DNA of 64,000 bases from Candidatus Saccharimonadales bacterium (GTDB lineage Bacteria; Patescibacteriota; Saccharimonadia; Saccharimonadales; UBA4665), in contig DASTXH010000017.1 in assembly GCA_035758575.1 (NCBI GenBank), positions 22,945-86,944 of the forward strand, written 5' to 3'. The notes under the pieces were generated by a model. That model was given only the letters and a program-made list of their open reading frames with translations, did no database searches and had not been told where the DNA came from. The position numbers and the translations under genes were made by a program. Positions within the stretch are counted from its first letter, which is position 1. Every line of letters begins with the position of its first letter. This document shows positions 56,256-61,563 of this stretch, piece by piece.

Positions 56256-56522
56256 TTATTTTACGGTCGCAAGTACATCTTCCTCTTTGACGAGGATATA
56301 CTCTTCCGTACCCATTTTTACATCGGTAGTGCTGTAGCTCTTGTAGATAATGCGGTCGCCGACCTTAATTTGCTTGGCGTCTTTACCTACGGCTACTACT
56401 TTAGCAACTTTCGGCTTCTCAGCGGCTTTTTCCGGCAGATATAAACCACTGGCCGTTTTGGTCTCGGGTTCTTCGCTTTGTGCGACCACGTAGTCACCGA
56501 GCGGTTGAATATGAACACTCAT
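56256..56522 (-). CDS. groS: Co-chaperonin GroES
   Basis: 88 aa with IQPLGDYVVAQ...GLYLPEKA... and the mobile loop. Confidence 0.95.
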   Translation of the reverse strand: MSVHIQPLGDYVVAQSEEPETKTASGLYLPEKAAEKPKVAKVVAVGKDAKQIKVGDRIIYKSYSTTDVKMGTEEYILVKEEDVLATVK

Positions 56523-56555
56523 TGCGGGTGATTCCTCCGTTATGGTTATATTCGG

Positions 56556-56582
56556 CTAGCACTCATGAAGTGGTAGTGCCAG
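56556..56582 (-). promoter_or_regulatory. CIRCE-like inverted repeat 1 (degenerate) in the groES 5' UTR
   Basis: Reverse strand CTGGCACTA-N9-GAGTGCTAG against consensus TTAGCACTC-N9-GAGTGCTAA (6/9 and 8/9). Confidence 0.45.
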
Positions 56583-56585
56583 CCA

Positions 56586-56612
56586 TCAGCACTCAATATA
56601 GCCAAGTGCTAA
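56586..56612 (-). promoter_or_regulatory. CIRCE operator (HrcA site) overlapping the groES promoter
   Basis: Reverse strand TTAGCACTT-N9-GAGTGCTGA against consensus TTAGCACTC-N9-GAGTGCTAA (8/9 and 8/9). Confidence 0.7.
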
Positions 56613-56623
56613 CCGCGGGTCAA
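56595..56623 (-). promoter_or_regulatory. Candidate groES promoter (TTGACC-N17-TATATT)
   Basis: The -35 TTGACC (56618-56623) overlaps the stop of the upstream gene. The -10 TATATT (56595-56600) lies in the CIRCE spacer. Confidence 0.5.
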
Positions 56624-57345
56624 GAGGGAAGCATGCGGTTAAGCGTATCCATAAGCTGTAGCGCCTCTTGGTCCCGTTCTCTAGTACTAACGAAATTATG
56701 TCGTGTCTTGTTGTAGACCTTCGACTGGTGACGCGTGAGGACGATAAGTTCAAATGGCACTTGTCGGTTGCCTACTGTCGTGTGTAGTTTCGCCTGTAAT
56801 ATACCTTGTCGAACGAACCGTGGGTCACTAGCGCCGTTCGCAAGCGGGCTGATCTCACCTCCTTCGAACTCGCAGCATGCATGCTCTAACACACGCCGCG
56901 GAAGTACATCATTGGGCGTTCGGACCAAAAAAGCATATAAATCACTGATTCTATCTGTCGAGGCAGCGTTTTCCCGACGCTTGACCTTACCAAGGATGCT
57001 GCTGATCTCTTTCGTGCGCCCAGCCAGTTCCAGAACGTTCGCCTCGAACGGCGAATTGCACAGCATTTTAAGCACGTGTTCACCGATGGCATACCCCACT
57101 TCTTTCATCTCGCTCTGGATTCTCTCGTGCTCGTACACCAGTCCTGGAATGAAGCAAGAGGCTTCAGCGCCGCAGCCAAGCGCACCTATAGTTCGAGCAA
57201 TCTCCTGCCGCCACCGGATAATATCCATGACTTCAGGCTGCTCGAGATATGTTTCTGGCGGCTTCAGCTCAGCTTCATAAGAAGACCACGGGTAGTACTC
57301 ACCTGTGGGGGGCGTCATTATGAGTGATTCGTATGGGTTAATCAT
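56620..57345 (-). CDS. Hypothetical protein (unit 3 of the leader-controlled orphan cluster)
   Basis: 241 aa from ATG 57345 (247 aa from TTG 57363). No recognisable motif. Preceded by leader copy 1. Confidence 0.55.
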   Translation of the reverse strand: MINPYESLIMTPPTGEYYPWSSYEAELKPPETYLEQPEVMDIIRWRQEIARTIGALGCGAEASCFIPGLVYEHERIQSEMKEVGYAIGEHVLKMLCNSPFEANVLELAGRTKEISSILGKVKRRENAASTDRISDLYAFLVRTPNDVLPRRVLEHACCEFEGGEISPLANGASDPRFVRQGILQAKLHTTVGNRQVPFELIVLTRHQSKVYNKTRHNFVSTRERDQEALQLMDTLNRMLPS

Positions 57346-57361
57346 AAATACTTTCTGTAAC

Positions 57362-57392
57362 AAAAATCTCCCTCGGGATTCGAGGGAGATTT
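57362..57392 (-). terminator. Intrinsic terminator of leader copy 1
   Basis: Reverse strand AUCUCCCUCG-aaucc-CGAGGGAGAU followed by UUUUUG. It ends about 20 nt before ATG 57345. Confidence 0.7.
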
Positions 57393-57435
57393 GTAGTGTT
57401 GTTCCTTATTTCGTGATGCGTTTTTTTACGCTACG

Positions 57436-57492
57436 CTACAATCTCCCTCTTGCTTGAGGAAAATGACCATGTGGTCGAGAATGTATTGGCAT
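57436..57492 (-). CDS. Candidate 18-aa leader peptide MPIHSRPHGHFPQARGRL (copy 1)
   Basis: ATG at 57492 and TAG at 57436-57438 inside antiterminator arm A. The only two substitutions against copy 2 are synonymous. No Shine-Dalgarno seen. An alternative overlapping 24-aa frame exists. Confidence 0.3.
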   Translation of the reverse strand: MPIHSRPHGHFPQARGRL

Positions 57493-57528
57493 AAAGACAT
57501 CGTTATATGCGCTCCCTGGTTTAAGTAA

Positions 57529-58503
57529 TTACCGTTTGTTAGCGTCACCATACCGCGCTCCTCTGCCACTATCTATCTCGCGCAATGCGGCCTCTGGGTC
57601 TTCGAGAAATAAATGTGCGTTGAGATGGTTTGCGTGGAAAAAGTCTGCCATATCATTAGCGCGCAACATACGGATTATGCGCGCCGCACTCCCTAGGTCC
57701 AGCGCCGGCATACCCTCTGATTGCCTTAGGTTTCGCTCGCGCAAAATATGAGCCAAGCCCACGAGCGCCATCTTACCCTCAAATGTGGTTCTTATAGAAA
57801 AAGCTTCAAGGGTTGCCGTCGCAGGTCCGTCTATTGCTTGGTCGCGCCACGTCCATTTACCTTCGCGCCAACGGTTATCGTGTGCCGTACCCAACACCGT
57901 AACTCGTGGATGTCCAATAAGCTCTTCCACGAGCGGCTGGAATGTCCGGGCATATTCCTCAGCCGCACTGCGGGAGCGCGCCTTGCCACTACTGCCCTTA
58001 TAGCCAAGGTAGTCAACATTATCTAGAATCACCACACCGCCCGCATACTGGGCATGCTCCATGAAACGCACAAGAGGCTCGCGAATGTTTTCGACACCAG
58101 TACGCTTGCCAGCATTCACATGTGTCGATAATGCGAACGTCGGAACGTTATGGACGACTGCCGCTACCTGCAGATCACGCACAAGGTGACTTTTGCCACT
58201 GACAGGCGCCCCCTCCACGAGTACAGATCCGCTAGTCTTTAATCCTTGGGCTATTCCACCTACTTCTGTAAAGCTGCTTTCATCGGGTAAGGATTCTAAT
58301 AAATCACCTAGATCCCCGGGCGTTTCAGGTGTAAACAGCCAGTATCCTCGTCCATTCGCTGAATTTTGTTCGATCTCATTTGGCCGAGCAGCTAGAGGGT
58401 AATTATTTACTGACGTCATAGATGCATATTTAAACACACCAATACCAGACCATCCCATATTTGGGCCATTTGCCGTAGATGTATCGTGTAATTCCAGACT
58501 CAT
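57529..58503 (-). CDS. P-loop ATPase (AAA-like), N-terminal unknown domain (unit 2 of the cluster)
   Basis: 324 aa with Walker A VEGAPVSGKSHL, a Walker B-like GGVVILDNVD and a sensor-like VTVLGTAHD. Confidence 0.7.
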   Translation of the reverse strand: MSLELHDTSTANGPNMGWSGIGVFKYASMTSVNNYPLAARPNEIEQNSANGRGYWLFTPETPGDLGDLLESLPDESSFTEVGGIAQGLKTSGSVLVEGAPVSGKSHLVRDLQVAAVVHNVPTFALSTHVNAGKRTGVENIREPLVRFMEHAQYAGGVVILDNVDYLGYKGSSGKARSRSAAEEYARTFQPLVEELIGHPRVTVLGTAHDNRWREGKWTWRDQAIDGPATATLEAFSIRTTFEGKMALVGLAHILRERNLRQSEGMPALDLGSAARIIRMLRANDMADFFHANHLNAHLFLEDPEAALREIDSGRGARYGDANKR

Positions 58504-58516
58504 ATAATTTCTTTAT

Positions 58517-58548
58517 AAAAAATCTCCCCCGGTATTCGAGGGAGATAT
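58517..58548 (-). terminator. Intrinsic terminator of leader copy 2
   Basis: Reverse strand AUCUCCCUCG-aauac-CGGGGGAGAU followed by UUUUUU. One U-A pair of copy 1 is U-G here. It ends 14 nt before ATG 58503. Confidence 0.7.
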
Positions 58549-58663
58549 GTAGGTGTTACTTTAACTTCGTGATGCGTTTTTTACGCTACGCTACAATCTC
58601 CCTCTTGCTTGAGGAAAATGACCGTGTGGCCGAGAATGTATTGGCATGAAAACGTAGACATCG
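58518..58663 (-). promoter_or_regulatory. Conserved leader/attenuator element, copy 2
   Basis: Same architecture as copy 1: arm A 58591-58605, arm B 58537-58552, arm C 58522-58532. Confidence 0.6.
58591..58647 (-). CDS. Candidate 18-aa leader peptide MPIHSRPHGHFPQARGRL (copy 2)
   Basis: Peptide identical to copy 1 despite two nucleotide changes (CGA/CGG and CAT/CAC). Confidence 0.3.
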   Translation of the reverse strand: MPIHSRPHGHFPQARGRL

Positions 58664-58669
58664 TGGGCG

Positions 58670-58697
58670 ATTATATATACTTTTATAGGAAAGTCAA
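58670..58697 (-). promoter_or_regulatory. Candidate sigma-70 promoter of leader copy 2 (TTGACT-N16-TATAAT)
   Basis: The -35 (58692-58697) starts right after the stop of the kinase-like gene. The -10 (58670-58675) lies 8 nt upstream of an ATG (58659-58661) that opens the alternative 26-aa leader frame. Confidence 0.5.
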
Positions 58698-58698
58698 A

Positions 58699-59502
58699 CT
58701 AGGCAGGCTTCTCTACCGTGAGAAGCCACTCAGGCTTAAAACGAGCATCATTGGTCCACCGCTCGACAATCTTCGGCTGGTCCTTATAAGACACAGGCAG
58801 GTGAGGCTGATAGCCCAGCGCATCGAAATACGGTTCGAGCAGCACAGTGCTTAACTCATTAGCGCGTACCCGATTATCCTTTATGTCTCCCAGGTAACCG
58901 CTCCACAACGCAGAGACGCCCATGCTATACAAGTCGTGACATATACGAACACCAAATTCGCTCTCGGTGACATTCTCGTTGAATACTGTTTTTTCGGCAT
59001 CAAAGTATATGAACGAACCATCGGCTGCGAATGCCATATTCCAGATTTTGAGGTCGCCGTGGGAAATGCCGCGGTCATGAAGCGCTGCTGCGACCGTCGC
59101 CATGCGTCCAAAGGTCTTCGTCAGTCGATCCTGACGTACTCTGTCTTCAGAGCTTGGAGTCCAATCCAGATGAGATAAAGGCCGGATGTCTTCACGATAC
59201 GTCAATAGAATATGCCTATCATAGCTGCTCACTACACCTATAGGCTCTACCACTTTCAAGCCCGGCATATTCTCCTCAGCAACGCTTTCAAGGTTGTCGA
59301 GCTCCGCATGGGCATACCTACGCGCGGCATGGGGCTTTGCGACGACTGGGCCATATTGTGTCAAAACACCCGGAACTACGCCGTGTGCCGACTGGCGCAT
59401 GCCCGCTGCGAGGTGCGTAGCATCAGGAATAAACGTCAAACCCATCACAGAATGGATATCTTCTGCGACTTGCTTAGCATGCATTTCGTACGCTTGGCTC
59501 AT
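58699..59502 (-). CDS. Protein-kinase-like fold protein (APH/ChoK/Kdo/RIO-type catalytic loop)
   Basis: 267 aa with catalytic loop ISHGDLKIWNMAF (HxDxxxxN) and downstream metal-binding Asp in IYFDAEK. No clear Gly-rich loop. Confidence 0.65.
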   Translation of the reverse strand: MSQAYEMHAKQVAEDIHSVMGLTFIPDATHLAAGMRQSAHGVVPGVLTQYGPVVAKPHAARRYAHAELDNLESVAEENMPGLKVVEPIGVVSSYDRHILLTYREDIRPLSHLDWTPSSEDRVRQDRLTKTFGRMATVAAALHDRGISHGDLKIWNMAFAADGSFIYFDAEKTVFNENVTESEFGVRICHDLYSMGVSALWSGYLGDIKDNRVRANELSTVLLEPYFDALGYQPHLPVSYKDQPKIVERWTNDARFKPEWLLTVEKPA

Positions 59503-60071
59503 TGTTTCATTCCTTGGGTAATTTCAGACTGCAAACTTGTAACTACCGATCTTTCAAATAGAGACTTGAACGTATGGGCGATAGATTTCTTCATCCACAG
59601 TTCGTAGGCAGCGGTAGTCACCTCTGCTTGAGTAAAAATGACAGGCGGGACGTAGTACAGCTCGTTCGTCCTCATGTCTATAGCCACATCATCCACTCGA
59701 ACTACCGGAGGACGGATTGGCTGCTGCGCAGCCTCATACAGCAGTTGTCCAATGGCGCGATATATCGGCTTCAAATCCTCAATTCCGGCCGCCCCAAATT
59801 CACGCGTCACTGCCGCCACTGACGCAAGATAGGGCGGCACCTCGTATGTCGAGAAGTCCCCGCCTTCCACGACGCGCTGCAGCGTATGCGGCGTATCGTC
59901 TGACGCTTCGCCATACCCATTCGTATCTCGTACGGCTATATATTCCCGGCCGCCACGCACGTATTGCACCACATCATCAGCTAATGGACGTAGCTCGTGC
60001 GTTGGGTCTACGGGCGTCGGGTTTTCCGCCATGAGGTTTGACCAGGTTTCTGTTGAAATCATCTGGCACAT
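59499..60071 (-). CDS. Hypothetical protein (unit 1, translationally coupled to the kinase-like gene)
   Basis: 190-aa ORF with a 4-nt ATGA overlap with the downstream kinase-like gene. Start uncertain (alternative Met codons at residues 4 and 14). Confidence 0.5.
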   Translation of the reverse strand: MCQMISTETWSNLMAENPTPVDPTHELRPLADDVVQYVRGGREYIAVRDTNGYGEASDDTPHTLQRVVEGGDFSTYEVPPYLASVAAVTREFGAAGIEDLKPIYRAIGQLLYEAAQQPIRPPVVRVDDVAIDMRTNELYYVPPVIFTQAEVTTAAYELWMKKSIAHTFKSLFERSVVTSLQSEITQGMKQ

Positions 60072-60133
60072 ACGATATACGAAATATATCTTTCCTGCAA
60101 TTAAGGTTTTGCTTTAATAGCTTTACTAGTACA

Positions 60134-60164
60134 AATAAAATCTCCCTCGTGTTGAGAGAGATTC
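60134..60164 (-). terminator. Intrinsic terminator of the degenerate third leader copy
   Basis: Reverse strand AUCUCUCUC-aaca-CGAGGGAGAU-UUUAUUUGU. The stem mismatch is a U-G wobble only on the reverse strand. Confidence 0.6.
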
Positions 60165-60255
60165 TGTCATCTAGCGTAATGCTCTTGTCTACAACATCAT
60201 TCTCTCGGGCGACAATTGAGAAAAATCTCTATAAGCGTGTAGAACATGGCTATTA

Positions 60256-61563
60256 TTATAACACTTTACTATATTTAGTCAACAGTTGCCTCGTCAAAAC
60301 AATTTCGTCCCAAGGATGCTCGCCGTCGGCACGCTCTATGGTTTTTTCATGGCCTTTGCCCAGCAGCAATACCGTATCGCCTTTTTGTGCACGTTTTAAG
60401 GTAAAGGCTATAGCCTGCTTACGGTCGTGCACCAAGAACAAATTTTTATCACGAGTTTTGCCCGCCGCCTCGGCGCCACTGGCGATCTGGTTCAGAATTT
60501 GCATGCCATCGATATCTCGGTCGTCTTCTTCGGTCAGGATCACTTCGTCGGCATACTCGCCGGCCAGCCTGCCCTGTACTGCCCGTTTTGCTTCGTCGCG
60601 CCGGCCGGCGCTGCCGAACATCACGATCATTCTGCCCTTTACGACCGGCCGTAAATCTTTGAATAATTTTTCGAAGCTGTCCGGAGTATGCGCATAGTCC
60701 ACGATCACGTCGAAATCCTGACCCTCGTCTATCGTCGTCATACGTCCTGCAACGCCCTGTAAAGCGGCAATCCCCTGCTCTATCTGCTTTTTGTTCAAGC
60801 CCAGCGCCCGGCCTACACAGACTGCCGCCAAGCTGTTCTGCACATAAAACTCACCAGGAATGTGGCATACGATGTCGTAGCTGTCGCTCCCGGCTACGGC
60901 CGTATACCGGCTGCCACTTGGCGTACATTTAACGTCCTTTGCACGCACATCGCCGCCGTGCACACCATACAGTATCGGATGCGGGGTGGTATGCGCAAAG
61001 CGCTCGCCCTGCGTATCATCTGCATTGGCAATGCCTGTTTGCAAACCTTTCTTGTTTGCCGCCACCAGTCTGAACAAACGTCGCTTCGCCTCACTGTAGC
61101 GCTCAAATGTCTTGTGATAATCAAGGTGCTCGTGAGTGATATTGGTGAGTACGCCTACAGAAAAAGGTACGCCCCACACCCTGTACTGCGCCAAAGCCTG
61201 GCTCGTCACTTCCAACACCAGCCAATCTATTTTCTGCTCACGCATCCATTGCAGCCGGCGCATCAGCTCCGGCACTGGCACATTGGTGTAGTGATGAACC
61301 TGCTGGCGAATATCGTCGTCCACACCATACGACACGGTGGTCATAATGCCAGTCTTATAGCCGGCGCTGACCAGCATACGGTGAATAAAAAAGGCAGTCG
61401 ATGTTTTACCGTTTGTGCCCGTTACGCCAATCACCTTCATATCCCGCCCCGGGAAACCATGCATAGTATTCAACAATACAGCCTCGCCGAGATGGCCGTA
61501 GGGCTCAATTGCATGGAATGCGCTAGCAGGGATGACTTTTTTAACAACTCTACGGATATTCAT
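60256..61563 (-). CDS. murE: Mur ligase family protein (MurE-like UDP-MurNAc-tripeptide synthetase, short N-terminus)
   Basis: 435 aa with VIGVTGTNGKTSTAFF P-loop, the central domain motif NITHEHLDYH and a C-terminal domain. The P-loop is at residue ~50 instead of ~110. Confidence 0.8.
   Translation of the reverse strand: MNIRRVVKKVIPASAFHAIEPYGHLGEAVLLNTMHGFPGRDMKVIGVTGTNGKTSTAFFIHRMLVSAGYKTGIMTTVSYGVDDDIRQQVHHYTNVPVPELMRRLQWMREQKIDWLVLEVTSQALAQYRVWGVPFSVGVLTNITHEHLDYHKTFERYSEAKRRLFRLVAANKKGLQTGIANADDTQGERFAHTTPHPILYGVHGGDVRAKDVKCTPSGSRYTAVAGSDSYDIVCHIPGEFYVQNSLAAVCVGRALGLNKKQIEQGIAALQGVAGRMTTIDEGQDFDVIVDYAHTPDSFEKLFKDLRPVVKGRMIVMFGSAGRRDEAKRAVQGRLAGEYADEVILTEEDDRDIDGMQILNQIASGAEAAGKTRDKNLFLVHDRKQAIAFTLKRAQKGDTVLLLGKGHEKTIERADGEHPWDEIVLTRQLLTKYSKVL

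Follow-up and report, generated by a model that had tools for sequence, protein, structure and literature searches.

The 64,000-nt window of a Candidatus Saccharimonadales genome analysed here carries two leaders of about 150 nt, copies of one repeated element on the minus strand. Copy 1 (57362-57502) precedes ORF241, an open reading frame (ORF) for a probable RelA/SpoT-type protein, and copy 2 (58518-58663) precedes the gene for an AAA+ ATPase. All coordinates follow the numbering of the whole window, and the relevant genes are all on the minus strand. Both copies are very probably terminator/antiterminator attenuators, and each is probably a ribosome-mediated transcription attenuator. The original prediction for this locus had described a functional reverse-strand RNA and omitted any dependence on the ribosome; in our assessment a ribosome-dependent attenuator is the probable reading, rather than a purely RNA-based switch.

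Anatomy and alternative folds of the two leaders

The near identity of the two copies was borne out by a repeat finder, which aligned 57422-57498 with 58577-58653 (95% over 77 nt) and 57348-57396 with 58504-58552 (86% identity, 49 nt), by the leader alignment, and by a 30-nt core probe that matched these two sites alone in the window (0 expected in shuffles). Within the 82-nt core (ttcgtgatgcg to gtattggcat), our alignment agreed with the original prediction that the copies differ only by T7 versus T6, one a->g and one t->c change. The remaining differences were likewise found where they had been placed: in the terminator loop (AAUCC versus AAUAC), at a single terminator pair (U-A versus U-G, CGAGGGAG versus CGGGGGAG, alignment columns 160/171), at the antiterminator bulge (A versus U), in the linker, and in the A-run loop of the small hairpin (7 versus 6).

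Each copy contains an ORF of 24-26 codons of the pattern MS..QYILGH.VIFLKQEGDCSVA plus stop, a 5' hairpin domain that sequesters GAGGGAGAUUGUAG (region 2, which includes the segment GAGGGAGAU), and a 10-12-bp terminator followed by a U-run, which lies 13-20 nt ahead of the downstream start codon. The alternative partner of GAGGGAGAUUGUAG is CUACAnAUCUCCCUC; the resulting antiterminator, formed by regions 2 and 3, has 14 bp and one bulge. The leader ORF stops 8 nt past region 2. Copy 1 sits after the stop codon of the AAA+ gene, without a properly spaced -10 box. The elements of each copy are as follows.

Copy 2
58692..58697, minus strand: -35 hexamer TTGACT of the promoter (TTGACT-16-TATAAT, 11 of 12 matches)
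58670..58675, minus strand: -10 hexamer TATAAT, 8 nt upstream of the leader ATG, giving a predicted 5' untranslated region (UTR) of 0-3 nt
58581..58661, minus strand: leader ORF, 26 codons plus stop, starting ATG TCT and encoding MSTFSCQYILGHTVIFLKQEGDCSVA
58601..58647, minus strand: anti-antiterminator domain (region 1 side), comprising AUGC, UACAUUCUC and two hairpins, which pairs with region 2
58620-58631, minus strand: hairpin GGCC-ACAC-GGUC, from minimum free energy (MFE) folds
58601-58614, minus strand: hairpin CCUC-AAGCAA-GAGG, from MFE folds
58591..58604, minus strand: region 2, GAGGGAGAUUGUAG, inside the leader ORF, the strand common to the anti-antiterminator and the antiterminator
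58574..58586, minus strand: small hairpin GCGU-A6-ACGC, holding the leader stop codon UAA (58581-58583)
58538..58552, minus strand: region 3, CUACAUAUCUCCCUC, which pairs with region 2 (one bulged U) or region 4
58517..58546, minus strand: intrinsic terminator AUCUCCCUCG-AAUAC-CGGGGGAGAU plus U-run, from a terminator scan, ending 13 nt before the AAA+ start codon

Copy 1
57512..57516, minus strand: Shine-Dalgarno-like GGGAG, 11 nt upstream of the leader ATG
57426..57500, minus strand: leader ORF, 24 codons plus stop, translated as MSLCQYILDHMVIFLKQEGDCSVA
57446..57492, minus strand: anti-antiterminator domain, comprising AUGC, UACAUUCUC (57477-57485) and two hairpins
57465-57476, minus strand: hairpin GACC-ACAU-GGUC
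57446-57459, minus strand: hairpin CCUC-AAGCAA-GAGG
57436..57449, minus strand: region 2, GAGGGAGAUUGUAG
57382..57396, minus strand: region 3, CUACAAAUCUCCCUC, with a bulged A
57362..57392, minus strand: intrinsic terminator AAAUCUCCCUCG-AAUCC-CGAGGGAGAUUU plus U-run, ending 16 nt before the ORF241 start codon

Folding of the minus-strand RNA of the two copies was compared with that of shuffled sequences and gave z-scores of -6.8 and -4.3, with -3.7 and -2.4 for the plus strand. Three mutually exclusive helices are present: an anti-antiterminator (regions 1:2), an antiterminator (2:3) and, with its U-run, the terminator (3:4). The MFE structure of the full leader consisted of the anti-antiterminator and the terminator in all five leaders folded, and when the transcript was truncated after region 3 it was the region 2:3 helix, again in five of five. 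Across the alignment of the family described below, 96-99% of cells were paired in the three helices; the value was 100% for helices 1-3 of the anti-antiterminator and 98.9% for region 2:3.

Relatives of the leaders and evidence of selection

Seven full leaders from five genomes were aligned (alignment A5), namely the two window copies, L024, L021, L134, L008/L133 and L135. A close relative of the AAA+ gene led to L008, a contig with a partial copy at each end that is continued by L133; a DNA pattern scan of metagenomes yielded L021 (identical to L026) and L024; and homologues of ORF241 led to L134 and the distant L135. All seven leaders directly precede, in the same orientation, an AAA+ gene or a gene of the ORF241 family next to groES. 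Among the matches listed from the pattern scan, only L021/L026 and L024 belonged to the leader family, most of the others being other attenuators, and the leader had no match in the viral contigs searched.

Identity of the 65-nt core to the window copies was 91-100% across the family. It was compared with third-codon identity of the neighbouring genes:

L021 versus window: groEL third-codon identity 65%; leader core (65 nt) 94%
L134 versus window: groEL third-codon identity 77%; leader core 95-98%
L008/L133 versus window: third-codon identity 58% for groEL, 54% for AAA+ and 37% for ORF241; leader core 91%
L024 versus window: ORF241 third-codon identity 44%; leader core 97-100%

As conservation of the core lies far above the third-codon identity of its neighbours, selection is indicated and not recent neutral duplication. 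The conclusion of the original prediction thus stands, although the argument from duplication does not, since two copies by themselves could not show selection; it is the five further leaders from other genomes that support a reverse-strand functional RNA under selection, built as a terminator/antiterminator.

The claim that differences avoid paired positions also held in the larger set. Among the six close leaders, 4 of the 59 columns paired in either structure vary, versus 38 of 80 unpaired columns (Fisher p = 8e-8). In the helices, all four changes leave wobble pairs that are valid on the minus strand only: a C becomes U opposite G, or an A becomes G opposite U. All of A, U, C and G occur at the antiterminator bulge and the sequence of the terminator loop differs from copy to copy, while region 2 is 100% identical in the six close leaders and in the partial upstream copy of L008 (alignments A3 and A5). 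Region 2 of L135 diverges after GAGGGAGA; the distal arms of its antiterminator are changed on both strands and are still complementary (UGUAG/CUACA to UAC/GUA), and its anti-antiterminator is rebuilt in another register. L135 was left out of the column-wise covariation because its helices are shifted in register. Examination of these additional copies revealed no uncompensated breaks in the main helices, the pattern that by the original prediction would have spoken against it. The evidence for selection remains conservation together with one-sided helix changes.

The number of A in the run of the small hairpin after the leader stop (57419-57425 and 58575-58580) ranges from 5 to 8 across the seven leaders, which suggests that its length is slippage-prone and unconstrained.

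The leader ORF, a proposed mechanism and its alternatives

Two frames, A and B, are open in the window leaders. Frame A encodes a His-rich peptide (MPIHSRPHGHFPQARGRL plus stop) in which both core substitutions are silent. It was rejected: L021 and L008 have ACG in place of its ATG and L134 has ATC, and none of the three leaders has an alternative start in that frame. The frame B ATG is present in seven of seven leaders. Its peptides, each followed by a stop, are:

Copy 1: MSLCQYILDHMVIFLKQEGDCSVA
Copy 2 and L024: MSTFSCQYILGHTVIFLKQEGDCSVA
L134: MSSFSSQYILGHTVIFLKQEGDCSVA
L021: MSTFSRQYILGHMVILLKQEGDL
L008/L133: MIRQYIFGHMVFILKQEGDCSVA
L135: MTYMQSHIFGYTLVLKSEGEYVAV (24 codons)

This has consequences for the earlier claim that the differences avoid coding positions, which is correct for frame A only, probably the frame that was meant there. 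In frame B, the ORF conserved in relatives, the core substitutions are D/G and M/T, and a 6-nt indel also falls inside the ORF.

The strongest argument for use of the frame B ATG is that its start signal tracks genomic context. In the promoter-proximal leaders (copy 2, L024, L021, L134 and L135) a -10 box lies 8-9 nt before the ATG without a Shine-Dalgarno motif, and promoter spacing predicts a 5' UTR of 0-3 nt. The leaders that follow an AAA+ stop codon have instead GGGAG 11 nt (copy 1) or GGAG 9 nt (L008) before the ATG. Length differences at the N-terminal end of frame B are 3, 6 or 9 nt, the codon count after GGA is unchanged in L135 although the bases differ, and the leader ORF of L008 was called independently by a gene caller.

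From these elements we infer a transcription start site, translation of the ORF, coupling of translation to termination, and a signal, in the following scheme. Transcription would begin at the AUG of the leader ORF, or at most 3 nt from it, in copy 2 and in the promoter-proximal copies of relatives; in copy 1, which is internal to the operon after the AAA+ gene, the GGAG ribosome-binding site would be used instead. The ORF would span region 1 (AUGC..UACAUUCUC..CCUC) and region 2 (GAGGGAGAUUGUAG). Termination would be the default, since with no ribosome, or with a fast ribosome that reaches the stop and covers region 2, the region 3:4 terminator would form and stop RNA polymerase 13-16 nt short of the downstream gene. 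A ribosome lagging or stalled on region 1 (codons about 7-16, QYILGHTVIF) would leave region 2 free to form the antiterminator with region 3, and transcription would then proceed into the AAA+ gene after copy 2 or into the alarmone-synthetase-like gene after copy 1. The absence of a single-codon run makes a general sensor of translation speed or stress likelier than a sensor of one amino acid, and the signal may be generally slow translation, caused by ribosome inhibitors or by a lack of several amino acids, most of them branched-chain or hydrophobic. Our confidence in any particular signal is low.

Several observations weigh against this scheme. Substitutions in the ORF are mostly non-synonymous (in codons 6-16, five at position 1, three at position 2 and one at position 3), and nine of the ten residues common to L135 use an identical codon, which together point to constraint on RNA sequence and ORF geometry and not on the peptide, a situation shared with other attenuator leaders. 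A switch made of RNA only would produce the same conservation pattern. No run of regulatory codons was found in MSTFSCQYILGHTVIFLKQEGDCSVA, the downstream genes are not amino-acid genes, and leader codon usage, tested for rare regulatory codons, was unremarkable and uninformative. The predicted transcription start is placed by promoter spacing alone, and we know of no published demonstration of leaderless translation in Saccharibacteria. The ribosome-free intermediate transcript already favours the antiterminator thermodynamically, so the choice between folds must be kinetic, and when region 1 was masked the terminator still tied or won in copy 1, L021 and L134. The hairpin GRCC-ACAY-GGUC is lost in L135, no compensatory double substitutions were found within the close family, and the signal itself is a guess.

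Some of these points would suit a different operator of the same terminator/antiterminator switch, namely a ligand, protein or tRNA that binds the 5' domain while the ORF is incidental. We regard this as unlikely. Conservation at the nucleotide level that includes third codon positions, frequent amino-acid changes, the absence of a codon run, and a compact multi-hairpin 5' domain with invariant loop and junction bases (CCAAUACAU, AAGCAA) are all what a riboswitch or protein-binding leader would display. However, a context-dependent start signal (-10 box at 8-9 nt versus GGAG at 9-11 nt) fits only a translated ATG, all indels ahead of the fold have lengths divisible by 3, and L135 keeps the length of the ORF while its 5' fold is rearranged. 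In addition, no Rfam family reached threshold in the window (only a sub-threshold rimP leader, E = 3.5), and the loops do not fit the two-hexaloop rule of ANTAR targets.

Another explanation is that of a repeated intergenic element with a constitutive terminator and no conditional read-through, perhaps a recombination or cassette boundary of the murE-groES island. Gene content of the island differs between strains whose GroEL proteins are 98-99% identical, assemblies break inside the repeat, and the L134 leader is a hybrid of a copy 2 5' part and a copy 1 3' part, as recombination between copies predicts. Yet in this model a gene would have a strong promoter of its own upstream and still be silenced, by a constitutive terminator 13-16 nt before it, the 14-bp pairing of regions 2 and 3, maintained at 98.9%, would be left without a role, and the distant L135 keeps the same logic with altered distal arms (UGUAG/CUACA to UAC/GUA). 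We therefore consider this explanation highly improbable. Still less credible, and very remote in our view, is that the terminated transcript of about 140 nt or the hydrophobic peptide of 24-26 amino acids is itself the product, as a trans-acting small RNA or small protein, with downstream regulation secondary. The element does have its own promoter and terminator, and trans-acting attenuator products are known from rnTrpL/peTrpL of Sinorhizobium (PMC6614838, PMC7298713); against this, it is immediately upstream of a co-oriented gene in seven of seven cases, and the peptide sequence is poorly constrained. Ribosome-mediated attenuation remains the best reading.

Putative target genes, known attenuators and a possible wider leader class

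The order of genes on the minus strand is murE, ORF190, ORF267, copy 2, the AAA+ gene, copy 1, ORF241, groES and groEL.

61563..60256, minus strand: murE, first of the murE to groEL gene order
between murE and ORF267, minus strand: ORF190, preceded by a possible third, divergent leader-like element
60137..60260, minus strand: this possible third element, with TATAAT, 7 nt, ATG, the ORF MFYTLIEIFLNCRPRE plus stop, and the terminator AGAAUCUCUCUC-AACAC-GAGGGAGAUUUU
59502..58699, minus strand: ORF267, protein-kinase-like, with the motif HGDLKIWN
57529..58503, minus strand: first regulated gene, AAA+ ATPase of 324 amino acids, with the Walker A motif GAPVSGKS
56620..57345, minus strand: second regulated gene, ORF241, 241 amino acids, a divergent protein of RelA/SpoT type (small-alarmone-synthetase-like)

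The 324-residue protein is an AAA+ ATPase: its profile matched Afg2/Spaf, RFC, ClpX, FtsH and Cdc48 in the PDB. Its sequence is 100% identical to that of a protein from a metagenome-assembled 'Candidatus Saccharimonadales bacterium' genome. Eighteen homologues were found, and in relatives the gene is normally located between murE and groES. Most of its orthologues are without a leader of the copy 1/2 type, and a protein-guided genome scan with the AAA+ alignment detected two distant loci only. An orthologue of another lineage (L003, 3813-3992) has a different leader, with TTGACA...TATAAT, the ORF MIMVYTQRKFIIVCLFPNGRGAVE plus stop and a terminator AAAUCUCCC/GGGAGAUUUUUUU. Its ORF resembles that of a second family (L031, L114, L067 and L092: ..TQRxxFMLNL..), and its fold was no better than that of shuffles.

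ORF241 is probably a divergent RelA/SpoT-type synthetase. Its Pfam RelA_SpoT match is weak (17.9 bits, E = 0.0038, on the segment GRTKEISSILGKVKRRE) relative to the cut-off of 27 bits, and a sub-threshold match of the same kind recurs in six of ten remote homologues. In a Foldseek comparison with the PDB, the top-scoring matches were almost all synthetases of the Rel and small alarmone synthetase (SAS) type, at template modelling scores of 0.36-0.44 for a low-confidence AlphaFold model whose predicted local distance difference test (pLDDT) value is only 50.6. Homologue searches returned three proteins for ORF241 and one for ORF253 of L021. The gene downstream of the L021 leader is an ORF241 paralogue (31% identical), while the protein encoded downstream of L067 was not significantly similar to ORF241 by hhalign.

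ORF267 gave weak matches to Kdo/WaaP, Bud32 and the defence-system protein MkoA (PADLOC E = 5e-5), a hint that the murE-groES island may be defence- or toxin-related. The third element before ORF190 has weak similarity to the leader family (nhmmer E = 0.04), and its alternative helices are plausible but weak (z = -1.6). An inverted repeat (TCAGCACTC-N9-AAGTGCTAA, 56586-56612, two mismatches) that resembles the controlling inverted repeat of chaperone expression (CIRCE) overlaps the groES promoter TTGACC-17-TATATT. This promoter and operator suggest that groESL is under its own HrcA-type control, separate from the leaders, which would thus not control groES from its own promoter.

The murE-groES interval (56620-60256, compared with L134, L024, L021, L133 and L135) is hypervariable among strains that share 98-99% GroEL identity: the AAA+ gene is found in some and missing from others, the kinase-like proteins share only 25% identity, nothing matches ORF190, and different SAS-like paralogues occur. 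In the L134 leader the 5' half is like copy 2 and the 3' half is identical to copy 1, which is what loss or insertion of the AAA+ cassette by recombination between the copies would produce. The L008 (1-30, 1140-1169) and L133 (1-26) contigs, both from sample SRR33230361, end inside an identical 26-nt leader core, so that the leader repeat appears to be where short-read assemblies break at this locus.

An Rfam search had been suggested for the element, and no family matched it. Rfam 15 at gathering scores gave 0 matches in the 64-kb window, and at E <= 10 over 56400-59800 it gave only rimP, at 21 bits where the threshold is 47. Other forms of control were also compared with the leaders. The CIRCE/HrcA operator that usually controls groESL (TTAGCACTC-N9-GAGTGCTAA) is absent from them, and their anatomy matches neither the T-box nor type III antitoxin repeats. 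Targets of ANTAR proteins consist of two adjacent hairpins with hexaloops that have A at position 1 and G at position 4; this antiterminator was ruled out, as the loops here are ACAU/ACAC (4 nt) and AAGCAA (C at position 4).

Like trpL, hisL, ilvL and pheL of E. coli (Rfam Trp_leader and His_leader), the leaders have a short ORF over region 1 of a 1:2/2:3/3:4 set of helices, the last of which is an intrinsic terminator directly upstream of the operon. Unlike them, the Saccharimonadales leaders lack a cognate codon run, match no Rfam leader model, have a predicted leaderless start and an ORF that also covers region 2 and stops beyond it, and precede genes for an AAA+ ATPase and an alarmone-synthetase-like protein instead of biosynthetic genes. 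At the sequence level, then, they have the architecture of ribosome-mediated attenuation and not its cognate codon run or biosynthetic operon.

Closer parallels exist for individual features. The ilvBNC operon of Corynebacterium glutamicum has a leaderless leader-peptide mRNA and a three-hairpin attenuator (PMC11857589), and shares with our leaders the leaderless ORF (predicted here), the anti-antiterminator, antiterminator and terminator hairpins and the transcriptional read-out; IlvL, however, has many Ile, Val and Leu codons and governs branched-chain amino-acid synthesis, whereas the codon signal in the Saccharimonadales host is diffuse. In the mycobacterial "Cys ribulon" of polycysteine leaderless short ORFs (bioRxiv 10.1101/834739), a sensory short ORF likewise lies at the 5' AUG of the transcript and a stalled ribosome remodels the RNA downstream, as proposed here, but through a Cys tract and by unmasking a ribosome-binding site (translational control), where our leaders have an intrinsic terminator and no tract. 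The toiL leader before topAI-yjhQ of E. coli (PMC12121999) is an upstream ORF (uORF) that has no codon run, responds to many ribosome inhibitors and has a toxin downstream, and the bmrB leader before bmrCD of B. subtilis (PMC4191407) is a multipurpose uORF for translation stress. Both resemble our leaders in having an ORF without an amino-acid codon run, and stalling within a window would alter RNA structure here too. With toiL there is the further likeness that a growth-arresting toxin is regulated, as a toxic alarmone synthetase would be here; toiL, in contrast, relies on Rho and on occlusion of a ribosome-binding site where our leaders have an intrinsic terminator, and the sequences are not similar. 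No account of an attenuator in Saccharibacteria or the Candidate Phyla Radiation turned up in the literature searches. The mechanism itself is classical, but the leader family, the host group and the target genes are described neither in Rfam nor in the literature searched.

Many other, unrelated leaders with the arms GGGAGAU/AUCUCCC came out of the metagenome scan (loci L013-L132, for example L042, L054, L033, L043, L051, L053, L066 and L086), and they begin with a short ORF that looks leaderless. Among the 89 matches listed, 31 have an ATG that lies 6-10 nt after a -10 box and opens an ORF terminating at region 2 (2.9 in shuffles), and 49 have a perfect complement of GGGAGAU just upstream (16.5 in shuffles). 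Several contain tandem Trp codons (MSLIKLSLWWRS...) and precede a tRNA-Trp and a TrpB-like enzyme dependent on pyridoxal phosphate, or a class I synthetase of Trp/Tyr type, read by us as TrpS. The position of these WW leaders before Trp genes indicates that the design works as classical attenuation in these bacteria. Phe-rich leaders (..YFFFYFFK..) were also present among the arm-sharing matches listed. Taken together, the arm-sharing leaders look like an unannotated attenuator class, and we suspect that their host contigs belong to the Candidate Phyla Radiation.

A far-reaching and doubtful extension may be offered for the window leaders. They might sense translation stress in general and turn on a RelA/SpoT-type enzyme that is toxic or arrests growth and, independently, an AAA+ ATPase; such an attenuation-based stringent or abortive route would replace sensing by ribosome-bound RelA. 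It would operate in hypervariable, defence-island-like cassettes by groESL of an amino-acid-auxotrophic episymbiont, with the repeats doubling as recombination sites for cassette shuffling.

To our knowledge, gene regulation in Saccharibacteria, and in the Candidate Phyla Radiation as a whole, has hardly been described. The leaders would place ribosome-coupled, apparently leaderless attenuation in Saccharibacteria, where its targets, next to the chaperonin operon, would be the AAA+ ATPase gene and the alarmone-synthetase-like gene. Their relatives with runs of Trp or Phe codons suggest a whole class, which could be modelled for reading the regulons of uncultivated bacteria.

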